Assembly (NCBI GenBank): GCA_016781115.1
Contig: JADDQX010000001.1
Coordinates: 1 to 42,036 of the forward strand
DNA length: 42,036 nucleotides
Source of the DNA: Actinomycetota bacterium
Lineage (GTDB): Bacteria > Actinomycetota > CADDZG01 > WHSQ01
Reading direction: 5' to 3'
Shown here: positions 9,477 through 42,036 of the stretch, one piece after another
Layout of the letters: the number at the start of each line of letters is the position of its first letter
Numbering within the stretch: position 1 is the stretch's first letter
Translations under genes and position numbers: made by a program
The notes under the pieces: generated by a model
Databases searched by the model: none
The model's input: the letters and a program-made list of their open reading frames with translations, nothing else
Told to the model about the DNA's origin: nothing

Positions 9477-10262
9477 CTAACGGCCGCGAAACTCCGGCGA
9501 CCTCTTCCCGAAGAAAGCGCGGACTCCCTCCAGATGGTCCTCGGTGCGTCCAGCGGCGCTCTGCGCCTCGACCTCGGCCTCGAGCTGCTCATCGAGCGAT
9601 CGCGTCGGAGCCTCATTCGCCAGCCGCTTCGTGAGGGCGAACGCGGCGGTGGCCATCGTCGCGAGACGGGCCGCGAAAGACCGCCAGTGAGAGTCGAACT
9701 CCCCTGCGGGGACCACCTGCGAGAACAACCCCAGCTCCAATCCTCGCTGCGCGTCCACCGGGTGCCCGCTAGCGCCCAGCTCGAGGGCTCGGGCGGTGCC
9801 AACCATCTTCGTCAGGAACCAAAGAGCGCCGGAGTCCGGCACGAGACCCACCCGGATGAAAGCAAGGACCAACTTGGCGTGTTCAGACGCGATCCGGAAG
9901 TCACAGGCGAGAGCGAGGCTCGCGCCGGCGCCCGCTGCGACGCCATTGACCGCCGCGATGACGGGCTTCGGGGCAGACCGGATGGCGCGGATCAGTGGGT
10001 TGTACCGGTTCACCAGGGTGTCACCGAGGTTCGGCACCTCGCCGCGTTCGTACTGTTCGGACAGCGCTCCCAGATCCTCTCCCGATGAGAAGGCGCGACC
10101 GGCGCCCGTGATGACGATGCAGCGGATCTCGTCATCCGCCGCGGCCGCCTCGACCGCCGTCAGCAATGCCAGGCCCAGCTCGTCGTTGAACGCGTTCAGC
10201 ACTTCGGGGCGGTCGAGGGTGAGTATCGCAACGCCGCCCTCTGTTGATCTCATCAGCGTCAT
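9477..10262 (-). CDS. Enoyl-CoA hydratase/isomerase (crotonase) family protein
   Basis: A 261-aa ORF with LDRPEVLNAF, ITGAGRAFSSGEDL and the AAVNGVAAGAGASLALACD oxyanion-hole motifs. Confidence 0.88.
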   Translation of the reverse strand: MTLMRSTEGGVAILTLDRPEVLNAFNDELGLALLTAVEAAAADDEIRCIVITGAGRAFSSGEDLGALSEQYERGEVPNLGDTLVNRYNPLIRAIRSAPKPVIAAVNGVAAGAGASLALACDFRIASEHAKLVLAFIRVGLVPDSGALWFLTKMVGTARALELGASGHPVDAQRGLELGLFSQVVPAGEFDSHWRSFAARLATMATAAFALTKRLANEAPTRSLDEQLEAEVEAQSAAGRTEDHLEGVRAFFGKRSPEFRGR

Positions 10263-25120: not shown

Positions 25121-27112
25121 ATGACGAATCGCCTGGCGCAAGAGACGAGCCCGTACCTGCTCCAACACCAACACAACCCCGTCGACTGGTACCCGTGGGG
25201 AGAAGAGGCGCTCGAGCGAGCCAAGCGCGAGGACAAGCCCATCCTCCTGTCCGTTGGGTACGCGGCCTGCCACTGGTGCCACGTGATGGAGAGAGAGTCG
25301 TTCGAAGACGAGGCCACCGCGGCGGTGATGAACGAACACTTCGTGTGCGTGAAGGTCGATCGCGAGGAGCGCCCCGACATCGATGCCATCTATATGGATG
25401 CCGTGCAGGCCATGACCGGGCAGGGCGGGTGGCCGATGACGGTGTTTCTCACCCCGGACGGGAAGCCCTTCTATGGTGGCACTTACTTCCCGCCCCAGGA
25501 CCGCCATGGGCTGCCTTCCTTCACGCGGCTGCTGGAAGCCGTCGCCGAGGCGTGGCGGGACCGACGCCACGACGTCGAGCTGCAGGGCAAGCAGCTGGTC
25601 GAACAGATGGATCCTCTAGCTCGGCTGCGACCGAGCAACGAGCTCGTCACGAGCCAGATCCTGGACCAAGCCTTCGCCGGCCTCCGCTCCTCTTTCGACG
25701 CTGAATGGGGAGGCTTCGGGCGAGCCCCGAAGTTCCCTCAGCCGATGACGCTCGACCTGGCGATGCGGCTGGACAGGCGAGGGCGCGGCGACGCCCGTCA
25801 GATGGTGCGGCGGACGCTCGATGCGATGGCTGCCGGCGGCATGTTCGATCAACTGGCCGGAGGCTTCGCGCGCTACTCCGTGGACCGCTACTGGTTAGTT
25901 CCGCACTTCGAGAAGATGCTCTACGACAACGCCCAGCTGCTGCGGATGTATGCACGGTCGTGGCAGGTCTCGGCGAACGACCGGGATGCCGAGGTAGCGC
26001 GCGCTACCGCCGGGTGGATGTTGACCGAGATGAGCGATCCCGCGGGCGGGTTTTGGTCCTCGCTCGACGCAGACTCTGAAGGCGAAGAGGGGAAGTTCTA
26101 CGTATGGTCTCTCGACGAGGTGCGAGAGGTAGCAGGCGCCGATCTCGCCGCCGCCGTTGCTCACTGGGGCTTCACGGAACAAGGCAACTTCGAGGGCAAG
26201 AACATCCCGGTCTACGCAGGCGATCCGCCGGATCCGGCCGCGATCGCGCGCGCTCGTGCCGCGCTGCTGGAACGGCGGTCACAACGGGTTCGCCCGGGCA
26301 CCGACGACAAAGTGCTCACCGCGTGGAACGCTCTGGCCGCCTCGGCTCTCGCAGAAGCGGGAACGATCCTGCAAGAGAAGGAGTGGGTGGACGTGGCCGC
26401 GCGCGCGTTGACGTTCATCTTCGACACCCTCCTCGTCGACGGACGGCTGATGCGGGCTTACCGGCACGGGACGATCAACCACCTCGGGTTCTCGGAGGAT
26501 TACGCGTTCGTACTGGAGGCGTGCCTGTCGCTTTACGAGGCGACGTTGGACGAGATCTGGCTCGAGCGCGGAAGGTGGATCGCAGACGAAGCGGTCCGGC
26601 TCTTCCACGACCCCGTCGCCGGAGGTTTCTTCACCACGGGCTCGGACGCGGAGCAGCTTGTGACGCGGGCGAAAGATCTCGTAGACAACGCGATCCCTGC
26701 GGCCAACTCGGTGTTTGCCCTCGAACTGCAACGGCTCGCTTTGTTCACGGGGGAGGCGTCGTACGAAGAGAAGGGTGTGCAGGTGATCAGGTTGCTGCAC
26801 CAGGCGATGACGCGGTCGCCGCTGGGGTTCGCTCATCTGCTGTGCGCCGTCGACTTCTACACGGGAGATCCGACCGAGATCGTAGTGATCGGGGAGCAGG
26901 GGACGCACGACACCGAGGCTCTGCTGCACGTCGTTCGCGCGACCTACGTGCCGAACAGCATCTTGCTGCTGGCGGAGCAGGGGCGAGAGGAACCGCCGCT
27001 CCTTCGCGGCAAGGTGAAGATCGAGGGCCGCGCGACCGTCTATGTCTGCCATCGCGGCGCCTGCAGGGCGCCGGTTACGGACCCGCAAGAGCTTCCCGCG
27101 CAACTCGTGTGA
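25121..27112 (+). CDS. Thioredoxin-domain protein of the YyaL/DUF255 type with a C-terminal alpha/alpha-toroid (N-acylglucosamine-epimerase-like) domain
   Basis: A 663-aa ORF. The N-terminus [48 protein letters not shown] is the characteristic DUF255 signature. Confidence 0.88.
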
Positions 27113-27113
27113 C

Positions 27114-27542
27114 ATGAGTGGGATCAAGATCAACCGCTCGCTGACGGTGCCCGACCAGGAGATCGAGTTCCGCTTCACCACCTCCGGGGGTCCCGGTGGG
27201 CAACACGCGAACAAGGCTTCGACGCGCGTGGAGTTGATCTGGAACGTCGACAACTCTGCCGTGCTGGGGCCGCGCCAACGCAGGCGTCTGCATGAATCTC
27301 TCCGCCACCGGATCGACTCGGCGGGAAACCTGCGACTGGCGAGCGACCGCAACCGGTCACAGCTGCAGAACCGCAACGACGTCATCCAGCGCTTCCGAAC
27401 GCTCGTTAGCCACGCCCTCGTTCCTCCGAAGAAGCGTGTGGAGACGAAGCCCAGCAGAGCTGCCAAGGAGAAGCGGCTGAGTCAGAAGAAACAACGTAGC
27501 GACGTGAAGCAGCTGCGTAAGGTGCGTCTAGACGAGCTCTAG
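27114..27542 (+). CDS. arfB: Alternative ribosome-rescue factor ArfB (peptidyl-tRNA hydrolase, GGQ domain plus basic C-tail)
   Basis: The ATG at 27114 is 1 nt after the preceding stop. The protein has the GGQ motif SGGPGGQHANKASTRVEL and a Lys/Arg-rich C-terminal tail. Confidence 0.88.
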   Translation: MSGIKINRSLTVPDQEIEFRFTTSGGPGGQHANKASTRVELIWNVDNSAVLGPRQRRRLHESLRHRIDSAGNLRLASDRNRSQLQNRNDVIQRFRTLVSHALVPPKKRVETKPSRAAKEKRLSQKKQRSDVKQLRKVRLDEL

Positions 27543-28903
27543 CCGGCGGTGGCGAGCTCGAGCAGCGAATCGGCGACATGGTCCCACGACCAGCGCTCGT
27601 GTGCGAGGCGGACCGCCACCTGTTCGAGACCCACGCGCTGTTCCAGCGGTATCTCCAGCACCCGGTCGATAGCGGCCGCCAGCGCCGGTATCGGATCCGC
27701 CGGATCGAACGTGAGCAAGCCAGGACGGCCTATCGCCTGCTCGATCGCGGCCCCCGCCTCGCCTATCCCGGAATGAGCTGGAACGATCGGGAGGACCCCC
27801 GCCGCAGCCGCTTCCGCCGCGACCATCCCGAACGCCTCCGACACCACAGATGGCACCGCGAGCGTGTCGAACGTCGGCAGCGCCCTCGATAGCTCGTGGT
27901 GGTCGAGCCGCCCGGTGAACTCGATCTGGGTGGACCGCGCGGCGGCCACGTAATCTGCCGGAGCGGTCTCGAGGAACCGGACGAGATCCACCAGCGGGTG
28001 GGTTTCCCCGCCGCGGGCTACCGCAAGCATCTGCGGGATGTCACCACTGCCCACGGCTTGCGCGAGACAACGCAGGCCATCTTCGAACCCGCCATAGCCG
28101 ACGATCACCGCCCGCCGAACGCGCTCGCAGAGCGGGAGGGCCGCGATCAGGTGGTGAGCTCCCTTGGACGCGATCAGCTTCCCTACGAAACCGACCGTCC
28201 CGGTGTTGCTCGAGCGCGGTCGCGGCTGGAACACCTCGACGTCACAGCCGGGGTTGACCACGGCCGCTCGCTGCGCCCAGCCGGGAACGTGAGCCGCCGC
28301 CTCTTCCACCATGTAGCGGCTCCCACCAACGACCCCGGCGGCGGCGCCCAGCCCCGTCGCCGCGTATCGCGCGTAGCGAGCTTGCTTCTTCACCGCGTAC
28401 TCCAGCGCGCTCCCGTGAAGCTTCGCGATATAGGACCGTTCGCTCATCTCACAGGCGCGTCGCGCGATCTCAGGTCCCATGATCTCGTGGCCGGTGATGA
28501 TCGCGTCCGGCTCGAACGCGTTGATCGCGGTGACCATCGCTCGGACGTTGCGATCGGTGTAGTCCGCTAGCTCCTCATCAGACAGGTCGACGAATAGCTT
28601 CACGGTGAATCCGTCGTAGCGGTCGTAGACGTAGACCGGCAACAACGACCCGATATCTGGACGCGCCAGGCGGCAGCGTCCCGATGCCGCGATCGCGCCT
28701 GGTGAAGGGTCGAGCCGGAACGCTGTGTTGCCGGCGATGAAGTCTCCGGCCTCGTCGACGAACCCCACGCTTTGAGGTGCCCGTTCCTGGCACATCAGCA
28801 AGACGTCGTGGCCCTTGCGCCTCCAGCTGCGCGCCAGGTTGGAGGTGAACACGTTGGATCCAGAACCCGTGAGCAGGTAGCCGTGCCACAGCAGGATCTT
28901 CAT
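27539..28903 (-). CDS. Glycosyltransferase family 4 (GT-B fold)
   Basis: A 454-aa ORF with the N-terminal pattern GSGSNVFTSNLARSW and the C-terminal EAFGMVAAEAAAAGVLPIV (E-x7-E) motif. Confidence 0.85.
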   Translation of the reverse strand: MKILLWHGYLLTGSGSNVFTSNLARSWRRKGHDVLLMCQERAPQSVGFVDEAGDFIAGNTAFRLDPSPGAIAASGRCRLARPDIGSLLPVYVYDRYDGFTVKLFVDLSDEELADYTDRNVRAMVTAINAFEPDAIITGHEIMGPEIARRACEMSERSYIAKLHGSALEYAVKKQARYARYAATGLGAAAGVVGGSRYMVEEAAAHVPGWAQRAAVVNPGCDVEVFQPRPRSSNTGTVGFVGKLIASKGAHHLIAALPLCERVRRAVIVGYGGFEDGLRCLAQAVGSGDIPQMLAVARGGETHPLVDLVRFLETAPADYVAAARSTQIEFTGRLDHHELSRALPTFDTLAVPSVVSEAFGMVAAEAAAAGVLPIVPAHSGIGEAGAAIEQAIGRPGLLTFDPADPIPALAAAIDRVLEIPLEQRVGLEQVAVRLAHERWSWDHVADSLLELATAG

Positions 28904-28926: not shown

Positions 28927-29532
28927 ATGTTGCTGGACCGTTCTCTGCGCGCGACGATCCGCAACTTCTCGACGCTTTTCTTGGTCGTCTTCATGCTGCT
29001 GGGGCCGCTTCACCTCCTCTACGGCATCGTCTTCCACGACGTCCTCGAGTTGCGGGAGCTTCATCCCGCCATAGAGGGGTTCCCACCGAACCGGTTGGTC
29101 CGAGGGGTTGGTCAAGCTGCTGTTTCCCAAGCTCGGATCTGGTTCTGGGCGCTCGTTGTGGTCGAGGTCGTTGCACTTCCCGTGCTCCTGCGGGCCTGCC
29201 AACGCGTCCTGGCGGCAGACGCCGCGGGCGATGTGCCAACGGCGATCGGCGCGTGGCGATCGCTCCGTACAGAGACGGCGATGACGACGCAAAGCGGCAA
29301 CAAGCTGGGAACGGTTGCGGCTGCGTTGTTGATCGCGGTTGCAAGCGGGACGTTCCTCGAGCTGATCGGGATGTCGCTCGTGAACCTGCTCCCCGACAGC
29401 GTCGCGTTCGCCGCCATCGCGCTGACGCAAGCAACCGCCCGATCCACCCGAGTTGTGTTCTTCCTAGTGCCGCTCGCGCACGTCCTAGCGGCTCGACCGG
29501 GACGCACCCAGCAGGTGCCGGACCTCTTCTAG
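28927..29532 (+). CDS. Hypothetical integral membrane protein
   Basis: A 201-aa ORF with about 4 hydrophobic helices. I recognised no family motif. Confidence 0.65.
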   Translation: MLLDRSLRATIRNFSTLFLVVFMLLGPLHLLYGIVFHDVLELRELHPAIEGFPPNRLVRGVGQAAVSQARIWFWALVVVEVVALPVLLRACQRVLAADAAGDVPTAIGAWRSLRTETAMTTQSGNKLGTVAAALLIAVASGTFLELIGMSLVNLLPDSVAFAAIALTQATARSTRVVFFLVPLAHVLAARPGRTQQVPDLF

Positions 29533-30389
29533 AGCCCCTGGAAGAGATCGTCTTCCGGAAGGTCCTTCTCCACGTGGGTCGCGACCAGCGTGTAGTCCTC
29601 CCACGGGTAGACCTTCCGATGGATCTCGTCGGGGATCGCGAACCAGAAACTGTCGGGATCGATCTGCGTGGCATGGGCCAGCAACGCCTTGGACCGTAGT
29701 TCGATGTAATCGCCCACGTCGATCTGCGTCGTGATCTCGGGATCCTCGAACCCGATTTCGTCCCACTTCTCGAGCCAGCCGATGTACGGGCTTTCGATCC
29801 CCTCGGTGACCGCTGCGTCCGACAGTATCTGCATCCGCTGCTTGCTGAACGTGGCGAAGAAGTACAGCTTCGAAGCTGCCCACGCGGGTCCCGCGTCGGG
29901 GAAGCGATCGGGGTCTGCCGCCGCGACGAAGGCCTCCTTCCCCCACTCGTGGACCTTCACGTGGTCCGGATGCTCGTAACCCCGTGACTCGTCGTACGAC
30001 AACACGACCTCTGGCTTCTCCGCCCGGATGATCTGAACCAGCTTTCCCACGGCTTCGTCGGGATCGGCGTTGCAGAAAGCCGCAGGATGATCGTTCGCGG
30101 GTGATCCGGGCATCCCGGAGTCGCGATAGCCGAGCTGGTAGATCTTCTTCACTCCGAGCAGATCGCACGCGGTTTCAAGTTCGGCTTCGCGCAGTTCCGG
30201 CATCCGCTCCTTGATCCCGGGCTTGTCCATCCGAGGATTGAGGATGTCTCCCTCTTCACCCCTCGTAGCGCAGGCGAGAACGACGCGGACTCCTTCGTCG
30301 GCATAACGAGCCATCGTGGCCGAACCCTTCGATGATTCGTCGTCCGGGTGGGCGTGGATCGCCAACAGGCATCTTTGTTTCTCAGACAC
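29529..30389 (-). CDS. mca: LmbE/PIG-L family metallo-amidase, Mca-like (mycothiol S-conjugate amidase)
   Basis: A 286-aa ORF with the zinc motif AIHAHPDDES, the pattern HPDH, AHATQIDP, and the C-terminal LPEDDLFQG typical of Mca rather than MshB. It has a GTG start. Confidence 0.8.
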   Translation of the reverse strand: MSEKQRCLLAIHAHPDDESSKGSATMARYADEGVRVVLACATRGEEGDILNPRMDKPGIKERMPELREAELETACDLLGVKKIYQLGYRDSGMPGSPANDHPAAFCNADPDEAVGKLVQIIRAEKPEVVLSYDESRGYEHPDHVKVHEWGKEAFVAAADPDRFPDAGPAWAASKLYFFATFSKQRMQILSDAAVTEGIESPYIGWLEKWDEIGFEDPEITTQIDVGDYIELRSKALLAHATQIDPDSFWFAIPDEIHRKVYPWEDYTLVATHVEKDLPEDDLFQGL

Positions 30390-32132: not shown

Positions 32133-33485
32133 ATGGGAGACATGACGAGCACCTGGTCGCCCGGCTCCTGGCGTGATGTGGAGACGGCGCAGCAGCCCGA
32201 ATGGCCCGACGATGCGCATCTTGGATCGACGCTGGAAACGCTGCGCGCCCTCCCCCCACTCGTGTTCGCGGGCGAAGCGAGGAGATTGAAAGAGGCGATG
32301 ACGAAGGTGTCGCGGGGAGAAGCCTTCGTGCTGCAAGCCGGAGATTGTGCCGAATCGTTCGGCGACTTCTCCGCGGATGGGATCAGGGACAAGCTCAAGA
32401 TCATCTTGCAGATGGCGGTCGTCCTCACCTACGCATCGGGCTTACCTGTTGTGAAGATCGGTCGCATCGCAGGGCAGTTCGCGAAGCCGCGAAGCTCCGC
32501 AAGCGAAACGCTCGACGACAAGGTCCTTCCTTCGTTCCGAGGCCACGCGGTGAACGACGCTGCATTCGACGAGGCGTCGCGGCGTGCCGATCCCGACCGC
32601 CTGGTGCGCGCGTATCAACAGTCCGCCTCTACCTTGAACCTGATCCGAGCCTTCACGAAGGGAGGGTTCGCGGATCTCAACCAGGTTCACATGTGGAACC
32701 AGGAGTTCGTAGCCGAGAGCCGGCAGGGCCGGCGATACGAAGCGATGGCTCGCGAGATCGACCGCGCGCTGCGATTCATGGGCGCGTGCGGCGTGGATCT
32801 ATCGGCGGACTCTAGCTTGCACGAGGTCGACCTCTACACCTCGCACGAGGCACTGATCCTGGGTTACGAAGAGGCGCTCACGCGCCAAGACAGTCTCACG
32901 GGAGACTGGTACGACTGCTCCGCTCACATGCTGTGGATCGGCGACCGAACGCGTCAGCTCCAGGGCGGTCACGTGGAGTTCCTATCCGGAGTGGAGAACC
33001 CGATCGCATGCAAGATAGGACCCTCCGCGACGACTGCCGACTTGCTCGCGTTGTGCGAACGTCTCAATCCGCGCAACGAGCCCGGGAGACTCGCCTTCAT
33101 CACGCGCATGGGAAGTGGCTCGATAGAAGAGGCACTCCCTCCGCTGGTGCGGGCGGTGCGCGATTCGGAGATCGAAGTGACCTGGATCTGTGACCCGATG
33201 CACGGCAACACCTTCTCGAGCTCGGGCGGTTACAAGACCCGGCGCTTCGACGACATCCTCGGTGAGATCAAGGGCTTCTTCGCGGTGCACCAGCGAGAGG
33301 GAACCGTCCCTGGAGGGGTTCATCTGGAGCTGACACACCACGCCGTCACCGAATGCCTCGGAGGCTCCGAGGAGATCTTGGACACGCACCTGTCGGAGCG
33401 GTATCAGGCTCTGTGTGACCCTCGCCTCAACGCTCGACAGTCCGTCGATCTCGCGTTCCAGGTCGGCGAGATGCTGCAGGGCTAG
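32133..33485 (+). CDS. aroG: Class II (plant/Mycobacterium-type) 3-deoxy-7-phosphoheptulonate (DAHP) synthase
   Basis: A 450-aa ORF with WSPGSWR...QQPEWPD, LPPLVFAGEAR and AFVLQAGDCAESF signatures. An alternative ATG lies at 32142. Confidence 0.9.
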   Translation: MGDMTSTWSPGSWRDVETAQQPEWPDDAHLGSTLETLRALPPLVFAGEARRLKEAMTKVSRGEAFVLQAGDCAESFGDFSADGIRDKLKIILQMAVVLTYASGLPVVKIGRIAGQFAKPRSSASETLDDKVLPSFRGHAVNDAAFDEASRRADPDRLVRAYQQSASTLNLIRAFTKGGFADLNQVHMWNQEFVAESRQGRRYEAMAREIDRALRFMGACGVDLSADSSLHEVDLYTSHEALILGYEEALTRQDSLTGDWYDCSAHMLWIGDRTRQLQGGHVEFLSGVENPIACKIGPSATTADLLALCERLNPRNEPGRLAFITRMGSGSIEEALPPLVRAVRDSEIEVTWICDPMHGNTFSSSGGYKTRRFDDILGEIKGFFAVHQREGTVPGGVHLELTHHAVTECLGGSEEILDTHLSERYQALCDPRLNARQSVDLAFQVGEMLQG

Positions 33486-33718
33486 GAGCGGAGCTCCCGC
33501 ACCGACCTCAGCACGTCTTCATACTCCGCGTGACGCCCTGTTGTCCTCTTCGAGTGGATCAGGTGACCGTCGACCTCGACCTCGAAGACACCGCCGCGCG
33601 AGGGCACGATCACCAGATCGCTGATGTCTTGCTCGAACTCTTCTAGAAGACGTTCCGTCAGACCGACGGCTTTAGGCGCGTAGCCTCATTGGGCGCAGTA
33701 CTCGATGGAGATCCTCAT
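33482..33718 (-). CDS. SelW/Rdx-family small redox protein with an in-frame TGA at the CxxU position (candidate selenoprotein), absent from the six-frame ORF track
   Basis: I translated it by hand codon by codon: ATG(33718) MRISIEYCAQ-TGA(33688-33686)-GYAPKAVGLTERLLEEFEQDISDLVIVPSRGGVFEVEVDGHLIHSKRTTGRHAEYEDVLRSVRELRS-TAG(33484-33482). That is 79 codons with GC3-rich codon usage on both sides of the TGA. The IEYCxx[C/U] and GG.FEV..DG.L..SK patterns are typical of the Rdx fold. Confidence 0.75.
33643..33675 (-). promoter_or_regulatory. Candidate bacterial SECIS hairpin downstream of the in-frame UGA
   Basis: The RNA is CUAAAG-CCGUC-GGUCU-GACGG-AACGU-CUUCUAG. The upper stem CCGUC/GACGG is capped by GGUCU, and the lower stem is CUAAAG/CUU(C)UAG. 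The loop starts 25 nt from the U of UGA. It shares the GGUC apical loop with the E. coli fdhF SECIS. Confidence 0.55.
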
Positions 33719-33764
33719 AGCCGCAGCTTAGTGGCGCGCAACGCGGTCGCAGGAACCTCACCCC

Positions 33765-34424
33765 TTAGAGCGTGGCTATCCAGGCGGCGACTGCCTCGAT
33801 CGCCTCCTGCAACGCGTCTGCGCTGGTCCTTCCGGAGGATCTGCGCACCGCGAACGAATGATCCCCGTCGTCGATGATGGCAAGCGTCGTGGAGCCGGGG
33901 ATCCCGGCGCGCACGCGTTCTAGCGTCTCCAGCGGGCAGAAGGGGTCCCTCGTTCCCTCCACGAACAACATCGGGACGCGGACCTCGTGGAGATGCGCGT
34001 CCCGGACGCGGTCGGGTCGTCCGGGCGGATGCAGCGGGTAGCCCAGGAAGACGAGCCCGTCGCATGCCGTGCCACCCCGCGGGAGATGCGAGGCGATCCG
34101 GCCCCCCATCGATTTCCCTCCCAGGAAGAGCCGCGTCGGGCTCAGTCGCGAACGCACGTGCTCCACCACGGCGTCGTACGTCTGCTCGAGGATCGGTTGC
34201 CGATCCGGAGCCTTCCGTCCCAGCTCCGCGTAGCGGAAGTTGAAGCGGATCGTCGCGATACCCGAGCGCGCACAACCCTCTGCGAACCTCTTCATGAACG
34301 GGTGGTGCATCCCGGCTCCGGCACCGTGCGCCAGGATCAGAAGATCCGCCGTGGGACTCCCGTCTAGCGCCAGGGAGACGTCGCCTGCAGGAGTCGCGAC
34401 CAGCTCTTCCAGGCCCGAGATCAC
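33765..34424 (-). CDS. Alpha/beta hydrolase (dienelactone-hydrolase/KANL3-like)
   Basis: A 219-aa ORF with the nucleophile elbow GGKSMGG, a later DGDH, and a GTG start. Confidence 0.8.
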   Translation of the reverse strand: MISGLEELVATPAGDVSLALDGSPTADLLILAHGAGAGMHHPFMKRFAEGCARSGIATIRFNFRYAELGRKAPDRQPILEQTYDAVVEHVRSRLSPTRLFLGGKSMGGRIASHLPRGGTACDGLVFLGYPLHPPGRPDRVRDAHLHEVRVPMLFVEGTRDPFCPLETLERVRAGIPGSTTLAIIDDGDHSFAVRRSSGRTSADALQEAIEAVAAWIATL

Positions 34425-34498: not shown

Positions 34499-36673
34499 GT
34501 GCTCGAGAAGATCCTCATGACGCTCCTCATCCTCGCAACGCTGGGAGCGTTCGCGTCGCGCTCGCGAGACCTGGTGGGGTATCTCCAGCTCGGCAGGGAC
34601 GAGGACAGGAAGCCGAAGGACTCGGGACGCAAGCTCAGGGAGCAGATCGTCGTGGTCTTCGGCCAACGCAAGCTGCTGCAGTGGTCGATCCCCGGGATCA
34701 TGCACTTCTTCATCTTCTGGGGCTTCGTGATCCTCTTCACGACCATCATCGAGGCGTTCGGAGCGGTCTACCAGGAAGGCTTCCACATCCCTTTGATCGG
34801 ACGCTGGGGTCCACTGGGAGCGCTGCAGGATTTCTTCGTCGTCGCCGTCTTGGCGAGCATCGCGGTCGCGTTCATCATCCGGAAGATCCAGCGTCCGGGC
34901 CGTTTCGGGGGGTCGCACCTCAAGGAGGCCGACTACATCCTGGTGGCGATCACCGGCATCATGCTGACGATCCTGCTCGTTCGTGGAGCGGAGATATCCC
35001 TCGGCCACTTCCCCTACGACACGCGCTGGACGCCCGCATCGAACGCCACCGCACAATTGTTCGAGGGTTTCTCGGTCGCCACGCGCGAGGCCCTGGACAC
35101 CGTCTTCCTGTGGTGGCACTCGCTCATCATCCTGGGCTTCCTCGTCTACATCACCTACTCCAAGCACCTCCACATCATCACGGCGGGCTTCAACGTGCTC
35201 TTCACGTCGGAGCGCCCGAAGGGTGCGCTCAAGCCGATGTACATCGACATCGAACAGATGTCCGAAGACGATCAGTTCGGCGCCGGCAAGATCACCGACC
35301 TCACCTGGAAGCAGATCCTCGACGGGATGACGTGCACCGAGTGCGGCCGGTGTCAGTCGCAGTGCCCGGCGTGGAACACCGGCAAGCCGCTGTCTCCCAA
35401 GTTGCTGATCATGGACGAGCGCGACGCGCTGTTCGAGAACGGCCCTGCGCTGCTGAAGGCGAAGCGAACAAGCGAGGAGACCTTCCAGCAGCTGGTCGTG
35501 CAACTCGAGCCGTTGAACCCGACGGTGGTCGAGGACGAGGTGATCTGGGATTGCACCACCTGTGGCGCCTGCGTCCAGGCCTGTCCCGTGAACATCGAGC
35601 ACATCGACCACATCATGGACATGCGGCGCAACCTCGTCATGGGTGAGTCCCGTTTCCCGAAAGAGATGCAGCCCGCGCTGCAGAACCTCGAGAACACCGG
35701 CAACCCGTGGGGTCAGCCACCTCAGGCGCGTCTGGACTGGATGAAGGGGACATCCAAGCAGGAAGAGCTGAAGATCCCTCACATCTCTGAGGCTCCGGAC
35801 GCGGACATCTTGTTCTGGGTTGGTTGCGCCGGTGCCTTCGACGACCGCAACAAGAAGGTCGTCTATGACTTCGCGAAGCTGATGCAGCTCGCGGGGGTGT
35901 CGTTCGCCATCCTCGGCGCGGACGAGGCATGCAACGGTGATCCGGCTCGCCGTATGGGGGCCGAGTACGTGTACCAGATGCTCGCCGAGCAGAACATCGA
36001 GTTGCTCAAGGAGCACAAGGTCAAGAAGATCGTGACGACCTGTCCTCACTGCTTCAACACGCTCTTCAACGAGTATCCCCAGTTCGGCGGCACGTTCGAG
36101 GTCGTGCACCACACGGAGTATCTCGCCGAGCTGGTGGACAAGGGTCGGCTGCGGCCGAAGGGCGAGATCCAGAAGAAGGTCACGTACCACGACCCCTGCT
36201 ACAACGCGCGTCACAACGATGTGTGGAAGGGAGCTCGAGAGGTCATCGAAGCCATCCCCGGCACGGAGTACGGCGAGCTGCACCGGCATGGCCATACGAC
36301 CTTCTGTTGCGGCGCCGGGGGTGGGCGGATGTGGATGGAAGAGCGGATGGGCAAGAAGATGAACATGGAGCGCACCGACGAGGCGCTGGCATCCGCGTCG
36401 GACACGCTGGCAGTGGGGTGCCCATTCTGCAACATCATGCTTGCCGACGGCGTGACGGAGCGCCACTCGGATTCGCAGATGCAGGTGCGCGACGTCGCGC
36501 AGCTGCTGCTGCAATCGATCGAGTTCCATCCGGAGTCGAGCGCGGGCCGCAACGGCGCTGGGAACGGTCACGGGGACGGGCACGGCTACAGCAGCGAAGA
36601 CTTCCCCGCAACCGCGGAACCAGACGAGGTCTCGGGGCAACCGGTGGGTCCGGGGGACCCGCAGACGACCTAA
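34499..36673 (+). CDS. Membrane-anchored Fe-S oxidoreductase: N-terminal polytopic domain, 2x[4Fe-4S] ferredoxin motifs and two CCG (HdrD/GlpC-like) domains
   Basis: The GTG at 34499 (VLEKILMTLL...) lies 7 nt after GGAGG, and the ORF track start at 34472 is also possible. Motifs are CTECGRCQSQCP, CTTCGACVQACP, VGCAGAFD, TCPHCFNT, YHDPCYNARH and FCCGAGGG. Confidence 0.88.
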   Translation: MLEKILMTLLILATLGAFASRSRDLVGYLQLGRDEDRKPKDSGRKLREQIVVVFGQRKLLQWSIPGIMHFFIFWGFVILFTTIIEAFGAVYQEGFHIPLIGRWGPLGALQDFFVVAVLASIAVAFIIRKIQRPGRFGGSHLKEADYILVAITGIMLTILLVRGAEISLGHFPYDTRWTPASNATAQLFEGFSVATREALDTVFLWWHSLIILGFLVYITYSKHLHIITAGFNVLFTSERPKGALKPMYIDIEQMSEDDQFGAGKITDLTWKQILDGMTCTECGRCQSQCPAWNTGKPLSPKLLIMDERDALFENGPALLKAKRTSEETFQQLVVQLEPLNPTVVEDEVIWDCTTCGACVQACPVNIEHIDHIMDMRRNLVMGESRFPKEMQPALQNLENTGNPWGQPPQARLDWMKGTSKQEELKIPHISEAPDADILFWVGCAGAFDDRNKKVVYDFAKLMQLAGVSFAILGADEACNGDPARRMGAEYVYQMLAEQNIELLKEHKVKKIVTTCPHCFNTLFNEYPQFGGTFEVVHHTEYLAELVDKGRLRPKGEIQKKVTYHDPCYNARHNDVWKGAREVIEAIPGTEYGELHRHGHTTFCCGAGGGRMWMEERMGKKMNMERTDEALASASDTLAVGCPFCNIMLADGVTERHSDSQMQVRDVAQLLLQSIEFHPESSAGRNGAGNGHGDGHGYSSEDFPATAEPDEVSGQPVGPGDPQTT

Positions 36674-40324: not shown

Positions 40325-42036
40325 TCAGAGGCCGGGACCTTTCGCGATGGACGCGAACTTCGTGTACTGGTTCATGAACGCGAGTCTGACGGTTCCGGTG
40401 GGGCCGTTGCGATGCTTCGCAACGATGAGCTCGGCTTCACCCTTGTTCGGCGAGTCGGGGTTATAGACCTCGTCGCGATAGATGAACATCACCATGTCCG
40501 AGTCCTGTTCGATACTATTATGGGAAAATATTCCATTCGCCACGAAGTTGTGGTTTCCAGTGACCGTTGCGTCGTAGACCTCTTCCTCACCCAGATAATC
40601 CACGCCTACGACCGAATCCCAGAAAAGGTCCGACCCAGCTAGCGCTAGAAGTTCCGCATCGTTGTAGTACTCACCTAGTTTCTGAACGACGGTCCGGGTC
40701 GGTGCGGAATATCGATTGAAGCTAGGTTCGAAGCCAACGCCGACGGCTGCCGCAATCGATTTCAGAGACGCGGTCCCCGCGACCATGATGAATCTCTGCC
40801 ACACGTCTTCCGGAATGGTGTCGCGATTCGACCAGGTTCGGCGGGTGCTCATGTACTGAACGATCTCTGCCAACCCCGGCTTCTTAGGGCCGAAGGCCCC
40901 GATCTCATTCACGAACGATTCCATGGATGACCCCGACGTCACGAACGCCTGATGCATGTCCCGATACGAACCTTTGTGCGTGGTTCCCAGCCGCACCACG
41001 ATTCCGAAGCGCAACAGAAGATCGGCTACGTCTTCAACCAGTCTCCTGCTAGACGAGGCGTAGTAGATGGATGGCCCTCGCGACCCGCGGGCTGAAGGAC
41101 GGTGACCTATGAACCCATCCGTCGCCCAGAGGTGGCGCAGGAAGAGTGCGATCTGGCGCTTGGGCAGCCCGAAGACCTCTTTGGGGATGAACTTCTCGTG
41201 CGAGCGCTTGTCGTACAGGCCGAGCGAATCCATCCACGCGACGATCGGATTCCTGCGGCCGTGCGTGACCGGGTAAGGCGACGGCATGAACAGTTGGTAC
41301 GAGCGAGCCTGTGGCTCGAACTTGATCCGGACCGTCACTCCGAACGCCTTGGCCGCGTCTCCGACCGCCTGCAGGTTCTCCTGGCTCATCGACGCGTACC
41401 GGGTCGGCAGACGACGCAGGCAACTGCCGTCGCCGATCATGTGAGCGAGCAGGATCACATGCTCGTCCGGCCACTCCACCGTCTGTTCAGGTTCTGGAAG
41501 CATCCGAGGGATCGCCAGCCTCTCGCCGATCTCTAGCTCGTCCACCCGCTTCCAGCCATCGAAGGAGAGGAACGGATGATTCGCCGACGCCTTGATCTCG
41601 CGGCCCGAGCGGAGCTTGAGCTTGTAGATCTTCTTCACTCCGCTCGAGAAAACATGCGTCATGTTGCCGCGCTCGATCTTTAGGTCTTCGTTGACCGTCC
41701 AAACAGGAATGTCTCGCGCTCCGGAGCGGCAGAGATCACCCATCGTCACCCATTCACCCGTGTCGGCACGCGCAATGCGGGTGTCGGCGGTCAAGCATCC
41801 CGATTCACGGAGGTCACCTAGGAACGGGCGCTTGTCCGAGCGATATTCGACGCCTCGGTTGAGCTGCGACGCGCAGATCACGGGGATCGACAGTTCCTTC
41901 GCGAGGATCTTCAAGGACCGAGAGATCTCAGAGACCTCCTGCTGACGGTTCTCGGACTTCCGCGGCGACTGCATCAACTGCAGGTAGTCGATGATCACGA
42001 GGCCGAGCCCGTGCTTTGCCTTCAGGCGCCGGCACT
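40325..42036 (-). CDS. dnaB: Replicative DNA helicase DnaB, 5'-truncated by the window edge, interrupted by an intein
   Basis: The exteins read ...CRRLKAKHGLGLVIIDYLQLMQSPRKSENRQQEVSEISRSLKILAKELSIPVICASQLNRGVEYRSDKRPFLGDLRESG / SIEQDSDMVMFIYRDEVYNPDSPNKGEAELIVAKHRNGPTGTVRLAFMNQYTKF. The reading frame is open to position 42036. Confidence 0.93.
   Translation of the reverse strand, partial: CRRLKAKHGLGLVIIDYLQLMQSPRKSENRQQEVSEISRSLKILAKELSIPVICASQLNRGVEYRSDKRPFLGDLRESGCLTADTRIARADTGEWVTMGDLCRSGARDIPVWTVNEDLKIERGNMTHVFSSGVKKIYKLKLRSGREIKASANHPFLSFDGWKRVDELEIGERLAIPRMLPEPEQTVEWPDEHVILLAHMIGDGSCLRRLPTRYASMSQENLQAVGDAAKAFGVTVRIKFEPQARSYQLFMPSPYPVTHGRRNPIVAWMDSLGLYDKRSHEKFIPKEVFGLPKRQIALFLRHLWATDGFIGHRPSARGSRGPSIYYASSSRRLVEDVADLLLRFGIVVRLGTTHKGSYRDMHQAFVTSGSSMESFVNEIGAFGPKKPGLAEIVQYMSTRRTWSNRDTIPEDVWQRFIMVAGTASLKSIAAAVGVGFEPSFNRYSAPTRTVVQKLGEYYNDAELLALAGSDLFWDSVVGVDYLGEEEVYDATVTGNHNFVANGIFSHNSIEQDSDMVMFIYRDEVYNPDSPNKGEAELIVAKHRNGPTGTVRLAFMNQYTKFASIAKGPGL
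40517..41797 (-). mobile_element. DnaB intein (427 codons) with an embedded LAGLIDADG homing-endonuclease domain
   Basis: It begins CLTADTRI (Cys1) directly after RESG and ends FVANGIFSHN followed by Ser+1 (SIEQD). Block B is SANHPF. The LAGLIDADG-like motifs are LLAHMIGDGS and FLRHLWATDGF. The 3' part has markedly lower-GC codons than its surroundings. Confidence 0.9.

Follow-up and report, generated by a model that had tools for sequence, protein, structure and literature searches.

An interrupted gene in an apparent intergenic gap

We analysed a 42,036-nucleotide stretch of DNA (hereafter the window; contig JADDQX010000001.1 of assembly GCA_016781115.1) from an uncultured member of the Actinomycetota. 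It contains an intact gene that very probably encodes a 78-residue selenoprotein W (SelW)-like protein of the Rdx family, with selenocysteine (Sec) specified by an in-frame TGA. The gene, here called selW, lies between a DAHP synthase gene (32133..33485, plus strand) and an alpha/beta hydrolase gene (33765..34424, minus strand). This gap looked empty, as an earlier reading made from the letters alone (the sequence-only reading) had remarked; the six-frame list of open reading frames (ORFs) holds only a 43-residue fragment with a GTG start there (33482..33613). The minus strand reads ATG AGG ATC TCC ATC GAG TAC TGC GCC CAA TGA GGC ... TCC TAG with a single TGA, and the 78-residue readthrough product proposed in that reading was reproduced exactly. 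The features of the locus are listed below; homologous loci carry L numbers.

33482..33718, minus strand: predicted selenoprotein gene of the SelW-like (Rdx family) type, with 78 codons, Sec among them, before the TAG
33716..33718, minus strand: ATG start; the ATG and an MxISIEYC N-terminus are kept in the actinobacterial orthologues L001, L002, L050 and L051
33695..33697, minus strand: TGC codon for Cys8, first residue of the CxxU redox motif
33686..33688, minus strand: in-frame TGA, codon 11, predicted to be read as Sec from the TGA/TGC alternation in homologues
33655..33669, minus strand: candidate hairpin of the selenocysteine insertion sequence (SECIS) type, with stem CCGUC/GACGG and apical loop GGUCU (33664..33660), within codons 17-22 (A-V-G-L-T-E)
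33482..33484, minus strand: TAG stop

In L001 and L050 a stop codon lies a few codons 5′ of the selW ATG, and Cys occupies the Cys8 position in all sequences compared. The GC content of third codon positions (GC3) amounts to 0.90 over the ten codons that precede the TGA and to 0.75 over those that follow, compared with values of 0.65 and 0.40 for the two remaining frames; the codons on both sides of the TGA are thus GC3-rich, as had been claimed. The TGA and the sequence are the same in contig JAGELE010000020.1 of an NCBI metagenome-assembled genome (MAG; GCA_017884165.1) and in an independently made Logan assembly of run SRR12717691. The expectation that gene callers would miss or truncate the gene was borne out: the NCBI MAG record has no gene called in the gap, and a sister MAG (GCA_030155605.1) has only a 47-residue stub.

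At the 3′ end, the TAG codons of selW (minus strand) and DAHP synthase (plus strand) converge and overlap in a CTAG palindrome (33482-33485), giving the two genes 4 nt of common 3′ end. Their called ends overlap in L050 too, by about 4 nt.

The product belongs to the Rdx family

For profile searches the TGA codon was replaced by Cys. The product matched Pfam Rdx (PF10262) at 76.5 bits (cutoff 22.6; E = 1.9e-21) over profile positions 1-74 of 74, and the NCBIfam family TIGR02174, "CXXU_selWTH", at 64.5 bits (cutoff 34.2). With the NCBIfam equivalog NF041051 (SelTWH_Campy) it scored 80.1 bits, under the cutoff of 88, and is related to that group without being a member of it. Matches by sequence to proteins of solved structure included 3dex (Streptomyces avermitilis SAV_2001; E = 2.5e-12), 2fa8 (Agrobacterium Atu0228; E about 1e-12) and mouse selenoprotein W, 2npb (E = 1.4e-6). 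In all three the CxxC or CxxU motif aligns with Cys8 to codon 11 (Cys8-Ala-Gln-TGA11). The full-length similarity to these solved family members implies that the predicted protein would adopt a thioredoxin-like alpha/beta fold. These matches agree with the Rdx/SelW membership advanced in the sequence-only reading.

TGA and Cys codons alternate at the second redox position

A scan of GTDB species-representative genomes yielded 47 related loci. At the column of the second redox residue 18 of the 47 have a stop codon, which is TGA every time, and the other 29, from Tepidiformaceae and other Chloroflexota, have TGC. Three more actinobacterial loci with TGA (L050, L051 and L052) were found via truncated database proteins, bringing the TGA loci to 21. 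These are spread over about eight phyla: Actinomycetota, Verrucomicrobiota, Alicyclobacillaceae, Deltaproteobacteria, Longimicrobiales/Gemmatimonadota, Planctomycetota, Armatimonadota and Gammaproteobacteria. No frameshift or second stop was found in any of the homologous loci, whether of the TGA or of the TGC kind. The sequence-only reading had placed the TGA at the second redox residue and proposed to check whether Cys orthologues carry their Cys there and whether orthologous loci alternate between TGA and TGC; both checks came out in its favour.

Nearly all database homologues, labelled "Rdx family" or "selenoprotein W-related", are stubs of 42-62 residues with assorted internal starts, a pattern that is the signature of gene callers halting at the UGA. 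The sole full-length database homologue (protein P0001; L053:672-908) comes from a 1-kb contig of the Joint Genome Institute (JGI) and has AGA (Arg), a single base different, at the TGA position, along with a weakened hairpin (GAA TGC GTC GGT CTG ACG). Either a change from Sec to Arg or an error in the reads could account for the AGA.

A conserved hairpin follows the UGA

Downstream of the UGA the mRNA can fold as CCGUC-(GGUCU)-GACGG. The stem starts 17 nt past the UGA and the apical loop lies 22-26 nt past it. A stem-loop shortly 3′ of the UGA whose apical loop is small and includes a G is the arrangement by which bacterial SECIS elements are recognised (PMC1088965), and the hairpin has it. 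The codons concerned distinguish the two kinds of gene: all Sec-type genes have PKAVGLTE just after the Sec position, whereas Cys-type genes read LPRAQWMAGE, and a Cys-form control gave no stable fold. Conservation extends to the nucleotides. The 16-nt GCCGUCGGUCUGACGG, which encodes A-V-G-L-T-(E), is identical in Actinomycetota, Verrucomicrobiota, Bacillota, Deltaproteobacteria and Armatimonadota, and GCCGTCGGTCTGACGG is identical, third codon positions included, in 15 of 19 Sec-type sequences (the window counted) as well as in L050 and L051. Synonymous divergence is lowered over the hairpin codons, where the proportion of synonymous differences (pS) is 0.14-0.27, compared with 0.55-0.62 in the rest of the gene.

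Where the sequence does change, in the more divergent members, pairing is kept: a C-G pair becomes U-A in L012, G-C in L041 and G-U in L045, and a U-A pair becomes C-G (L030) or U-G. In alignment A1 the proportion of paired cells is 87.8%, and sliding the partners by one to three columns lowers it to 4-53%. Changes on both sides occur in two of the six pairs, and the observed covariation score was reached by none of 500 shuffles. The second loop base, a G, is invariant in this alignment. A different solution is seen in L052, an actinobacterial homologue of 58% identity whose SelW-like gene (L052:9880-10174) has a GTG start and reads CAA-TGA. At the same place, and at the same distance from the UGA, it has an unrelated stem with a 3-nt GUC loop (UCGUGCG-GUC-CGCAUGA; z = -2.4), from which we conclude that the frozen 16-nt core is not a requirement. 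The SECIS check called for in the sequence-only reading thus turned up a hairpin after the UGA with covariation in its favour.

Codons before and after the UGA are under purifying selection

In comparison with L001 and L002, the proportion of non-synonymous differences (pN) is 0.04-0.08 and pS is 0.58-0.75 over the ten codons that precede the UGA; for the codons that follow it the values are 0.14-0.15 and 0.49-0.57. The ten upstream codons show three synonymous changes to one non-synonymous relative to L001, and two to none relative to L050. Against L050, the closest syntenic relative, pN/pS is 0.20 for selW and 0.13 for the adjacent DAHP synthase gene. TGA terminates 5 of the 19 called genes on the contig; the standard code is therefore in use, with no reassignment of this codon.

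The window was also scanned for other selenoprotein genes. All 34 other in-frame TGA candidates with high GC3 on both sides were rejected: 33 coincide in part with a long ORF read in a different frame, in most cases on the other strand, where the called genes are, and the remaining one simply continues beyond the TGA that ends the threonine ammonia-lyase gene. None of the 34 has a CxxU or UxxC context.

Orthologues are linked to selenocysteine machinery

In five Verrucomicrobiota loci (L003, L004, L006, L007 and L010) ARAGORN identified a tRNA-Sec about 40-120 nt downstream of the TGA orthologue. One of these, the Methylacidiphilum contig L004 (137-4986), has a compact selW(TGA)-selC-selD-selA-selB cluster in which selD (356.7 bits), selA (500.6 bits) and selB (266.2 bits) all score over their NCBIfam cutoffs. 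Across all fetched loci, SelA, SelD and SelB signature motifs were found in L004 alone. The SelD of L004 is itself UGA-encoded (..LASCAG*AAKLG.., the asterisk being the UGA), and its called ORF consequently begins at profile position 34. Two AIRS-domain proteins were considered as SelD and rejected: the one in the window is PurL, and the one at the edge of L052 is most likely PurM, having a C-terminal MFRAFNMGVG motif.

Weighing a selenoprotein gene against its alternatives

Four results weigh against reading selW as a selenoprotein gene. The hairpin of the window has only 5 bp and is not exceptional relative to shuffled sequences (z = -0.74; z = +0.51 in an 81-nt context); since single-sequence thermodynamics is not significant, the case for the hairpin is a comparative one. 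Rfam gave no SECIS match at the gathering threshold, nor at E <= 10 over 33400..33800, where there was only noise. No clear Shine-Dalgarno sequence was seen upstream of the selW ATG. Finally, searches of the 42-kb window, the one contig covered, with ARAGORN, Rfam and Pfam/NCBIfam (the last on about 30 ORFs) found no tRNA-Sec, selA, selB or selD; the tRNAs that ARAGORN reported are tRNA-Asp, tRNA-Phe and tRNA-Gly only. Likewise, the 10 kb on either side of the gene in the actinobacterial relatives L001, L002, L050, L051 and L052 contain no sel genes.

This absence of Sec machinery from the window and from the flanks of its relatives is what would be expected of a recently dead gene, in a lineage that has lost the machinery, where translation halts at codon 11 and there has been too little time for decay. 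We consider this very unlikely. At least five related Actinomycetota MAGs, at a divergence of pS 0.3-0.75, keep the gene whole together with this TGA and hairpin, and its pN/pS of 0.1-0.3 on either side of the UGA is like that of the adjacent housekeeping gene. Moreover, Sec machinery is usually encoded elsewhere in a genome, so its absence from 42 kb says little. Less probable still is that the UGA is a true stop and that the functional product is a C-terminal fragment of 43-67 residues made by internal initiation. Although databases hold fragments of 42-62 residues for nearly all close homologues, the internal starts differ and are not conserved (ATG, GTG, none in common), and such a fragment would be without strand beta-1 and the entire redox motif. 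The strong purifying selection on the ten codons 5′ of the UGA and the Pfam match, which crosses the UGA from profile position 1, also speak against it.

Low-level misreading of UGA does occur in bacteria, and a standard tRNA (a Trp or Cys near-cognate) might decode the codon to give a CxxW or CxxC protein. To this we assign an even smaller chance, because two features peculiar to the Sec pathway are present, namely the conserved, covarying hairpin at the SECIS position and the physical association of orthologues with selC-selD-selA-selB, and because lineages that use Cys encode it by TGC and have lost the hairpin. The source being a metagenome-assembled genome, the TGA might lastly be a sequencing or assembly error for TGC, but two assemblies and 21 independent homologous loci agree on this base, which leaves an error with a next to negligible probability, the lowest of the four. 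Taken together, purifying selection, standard stop usage and synteny argue against a pseudogene, an internally started fragment and a sequencing error. An intact selenoprotein gene thus remains by far the most probable reading of the locus, in agreement with the sequence-only reading.

Genomic neighbourhood

The neighbouring features mentioned in this section are as follows.

25121-27112, plus strand: DsbH-type thioredoxin-domain protein, 663 residues
27114-27542, plus strand: peptidyl-tRNA hydrolase ArfB, ribosome rescue (141.6 bits, cutoff 100), adjoining the DsbH-like gene
27539-28903, minus strand: GT4 glycosyltransferase, weak MshA-like match
29529-30314, minus strand: mycothiol conjugate amidase Mca (290.9 bits, cutoff 277.15), about 3.4 kb from selW
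33765..34424, minus strand: alpha/beta hydrolase (Abhydrolase_11), upstream of selW
34499-36673, plus strand: Fe-S oxidoreductase, 724 residues, with 4Fe-4S and CCG domains (GlpC/HdrD/TfrB-like), two genes from selW
40325-41998, minus strand, continuing past the window end: replicative helicase DnaB with an intein and a LAGLIDADG homing-endonuclease domain

The hydrolase gene and the selW ATG are separated by 46 nt in which there is no terminator-like or promoter-like site, and selW is probably co-transcribed with this upstream gene. In L050 the selW ATG, at 9908, follows a hydrolase gene whose end is at 9898; in L051 the hydrolase is about 3 kb away from selW. The locus is syntenic with L001, L002 and most of all L050, with which it has the gene order hydrolase-selW-DAHP synthase-threonine ammonia-lyase in common, as well as genes lying beyond this group. 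For the first half of the window, exact-sequence look-ups of gene calls gave no match, probably because other start codons are used in the record. The genes of the window are of the housekeeping type: a purine biosynthesis cluster, branched-chain 2-oxoacid dehydrogenase, tyrosine catabolism, threonine ammonia-lyase, DAHP synthase, dCTP deaminase and DnaB.

The GlpC-like Fe-S oxidoreductase neighbour is kept in L002, L050 and L051. Among the selenoprotein families known from Deltaproteobacteria are the GlpC-like Fe-S oxidoreductases (PMC1794560); the copy in the window has no in-frame TGA. Thiol-redox genes (Mca, the GT4 glycosyltransferase and the DsbH-type protein) lie close together, about 3-8.5 kb from selW. 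ArfB has no evident link to UGA recoding. The DnaB gene is likewise split by an intein in the syntenic L050 (1603-4176).

Proposed mechanism and significance

If selW is a selenoprotein gene, translation would begin at the ATG at 33718 and the UGA at codon 11 would not be taken as a stop. The mRNA hairpin 3′ of this codon would act as a bacterial SECIS, recruiting SelB-GTP-Sec-tRNA(Sec) to the ribosome, and Sec would be inserted. Cys8-x-x-Sec11 would then form a redox centre, placed where helix 1 of the thioredoxin-like fold begins. The protein would most likely serve as a small thiol-dependent oxidoreductase, cycling between a selenolate/thiol and a selenenylsulfide form; this redox chemistry, like the insertion of Sec in this organism, is what we infer from sequence comparison. 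As Mca is encoded about 3.4 kb away, mycothiol is a plausible, if speculative, reductant.

The gene marks its lineage as a likely user of Sec. Surveys of the selenoproteome and of selenium use in uncultured Actinomycetota will undercount this SelW-like gene, since the source MAG record lacks it and the sister MAG and most metagenome entries have only a stub of it.

A wider proposal, which we offer as speculation and consider rather improbable, is that the SelW SECIS is a family-specific, almost frozen dual-coding module. On that proposal, selW and its SECIS, sometimes together with the Sec machinery, could move horizontally as a cassette; or a SelW-like protein, rather than formate dehydrogenase, could sustain the Sec trait in aerobic lineages. 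In Verrucomicrobiota, selW heads selC-selD-selA-selB.

Comparison with known selenoproteins and their Cys homologues

The reference bacterial SECIS is that of E. coli fdhF, a hairpin located within the ORF right 3′ of the UGA, with a loop recognised by SelB. Its apical loop and that of the window gene both carry G-U, within GGUC in fdhF and GGUCU in the window gene. In contrast to fdhF, the stem of the window gene is shorter (5-7 bp) and has no obvious bulged U, and its loop lies about one codon further from the UGA. Mammalian selenoprotein W (2npb) is of the same fold family and has the CxxU motif at the same position. It differs in that its Sec is specified by a SECIS in the 3′ untranslated region acting with SBP2/eEFSec, whereas in the window gene the candidate element lies inside the coding region after the UGA, as in the bacterial SelB mechanism. 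The Cys-containing Rdx proteins 3dex and 2fa8 can be aligned with the product over residues 2-76, their CxxC standing opposite the CxxU. Unlike it, they have Cys for Sec, are about 25 residues longer, are free of a SECIS constraint and have an xPRAxW segment where the window gene has the hairpin-encoding PKAVGLTE.

The closest likeness is to the bacterial SelW-like selenoproteins described by Zhang, Fomenko and Gladyshev in 2005 (PMC1088965) and by Zhang et al. in 2006 (PMC1794560). In those studies no selenoprotein family of the Sargasso Sea data set was as abundant as the SelW-like proteins, with 48 genes, a CXXU motif and a bacterial SECIS. These proteins were also found in cultured Deltaproteobacteria, Clostridia and others, and Actinobacteria were listed among the selenoprotein-rich phyla (PMC1088965, PMC1794560). 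Like these proteins, the window product is within the range of about 75-100 residues, begins with an N-terminal beta-strand followed by CxxU, and has the GGxFEV core. Its predicted Sec is encoded by UGA, after which comes an in-frame hairpin whose small apical loop has a G, and in this family too Cys homologues are rare in organisms that use Sec. There is no qualitative difference between them; the window gene is an unannotated copy from an uncultured member of the Actinomycetota. It brings no new mechanism or family and amounts to an annotation fix within a family known since 2005. What is new here is only this copy in an uncultured actinobacterial lineage, together with its absence from annotation.

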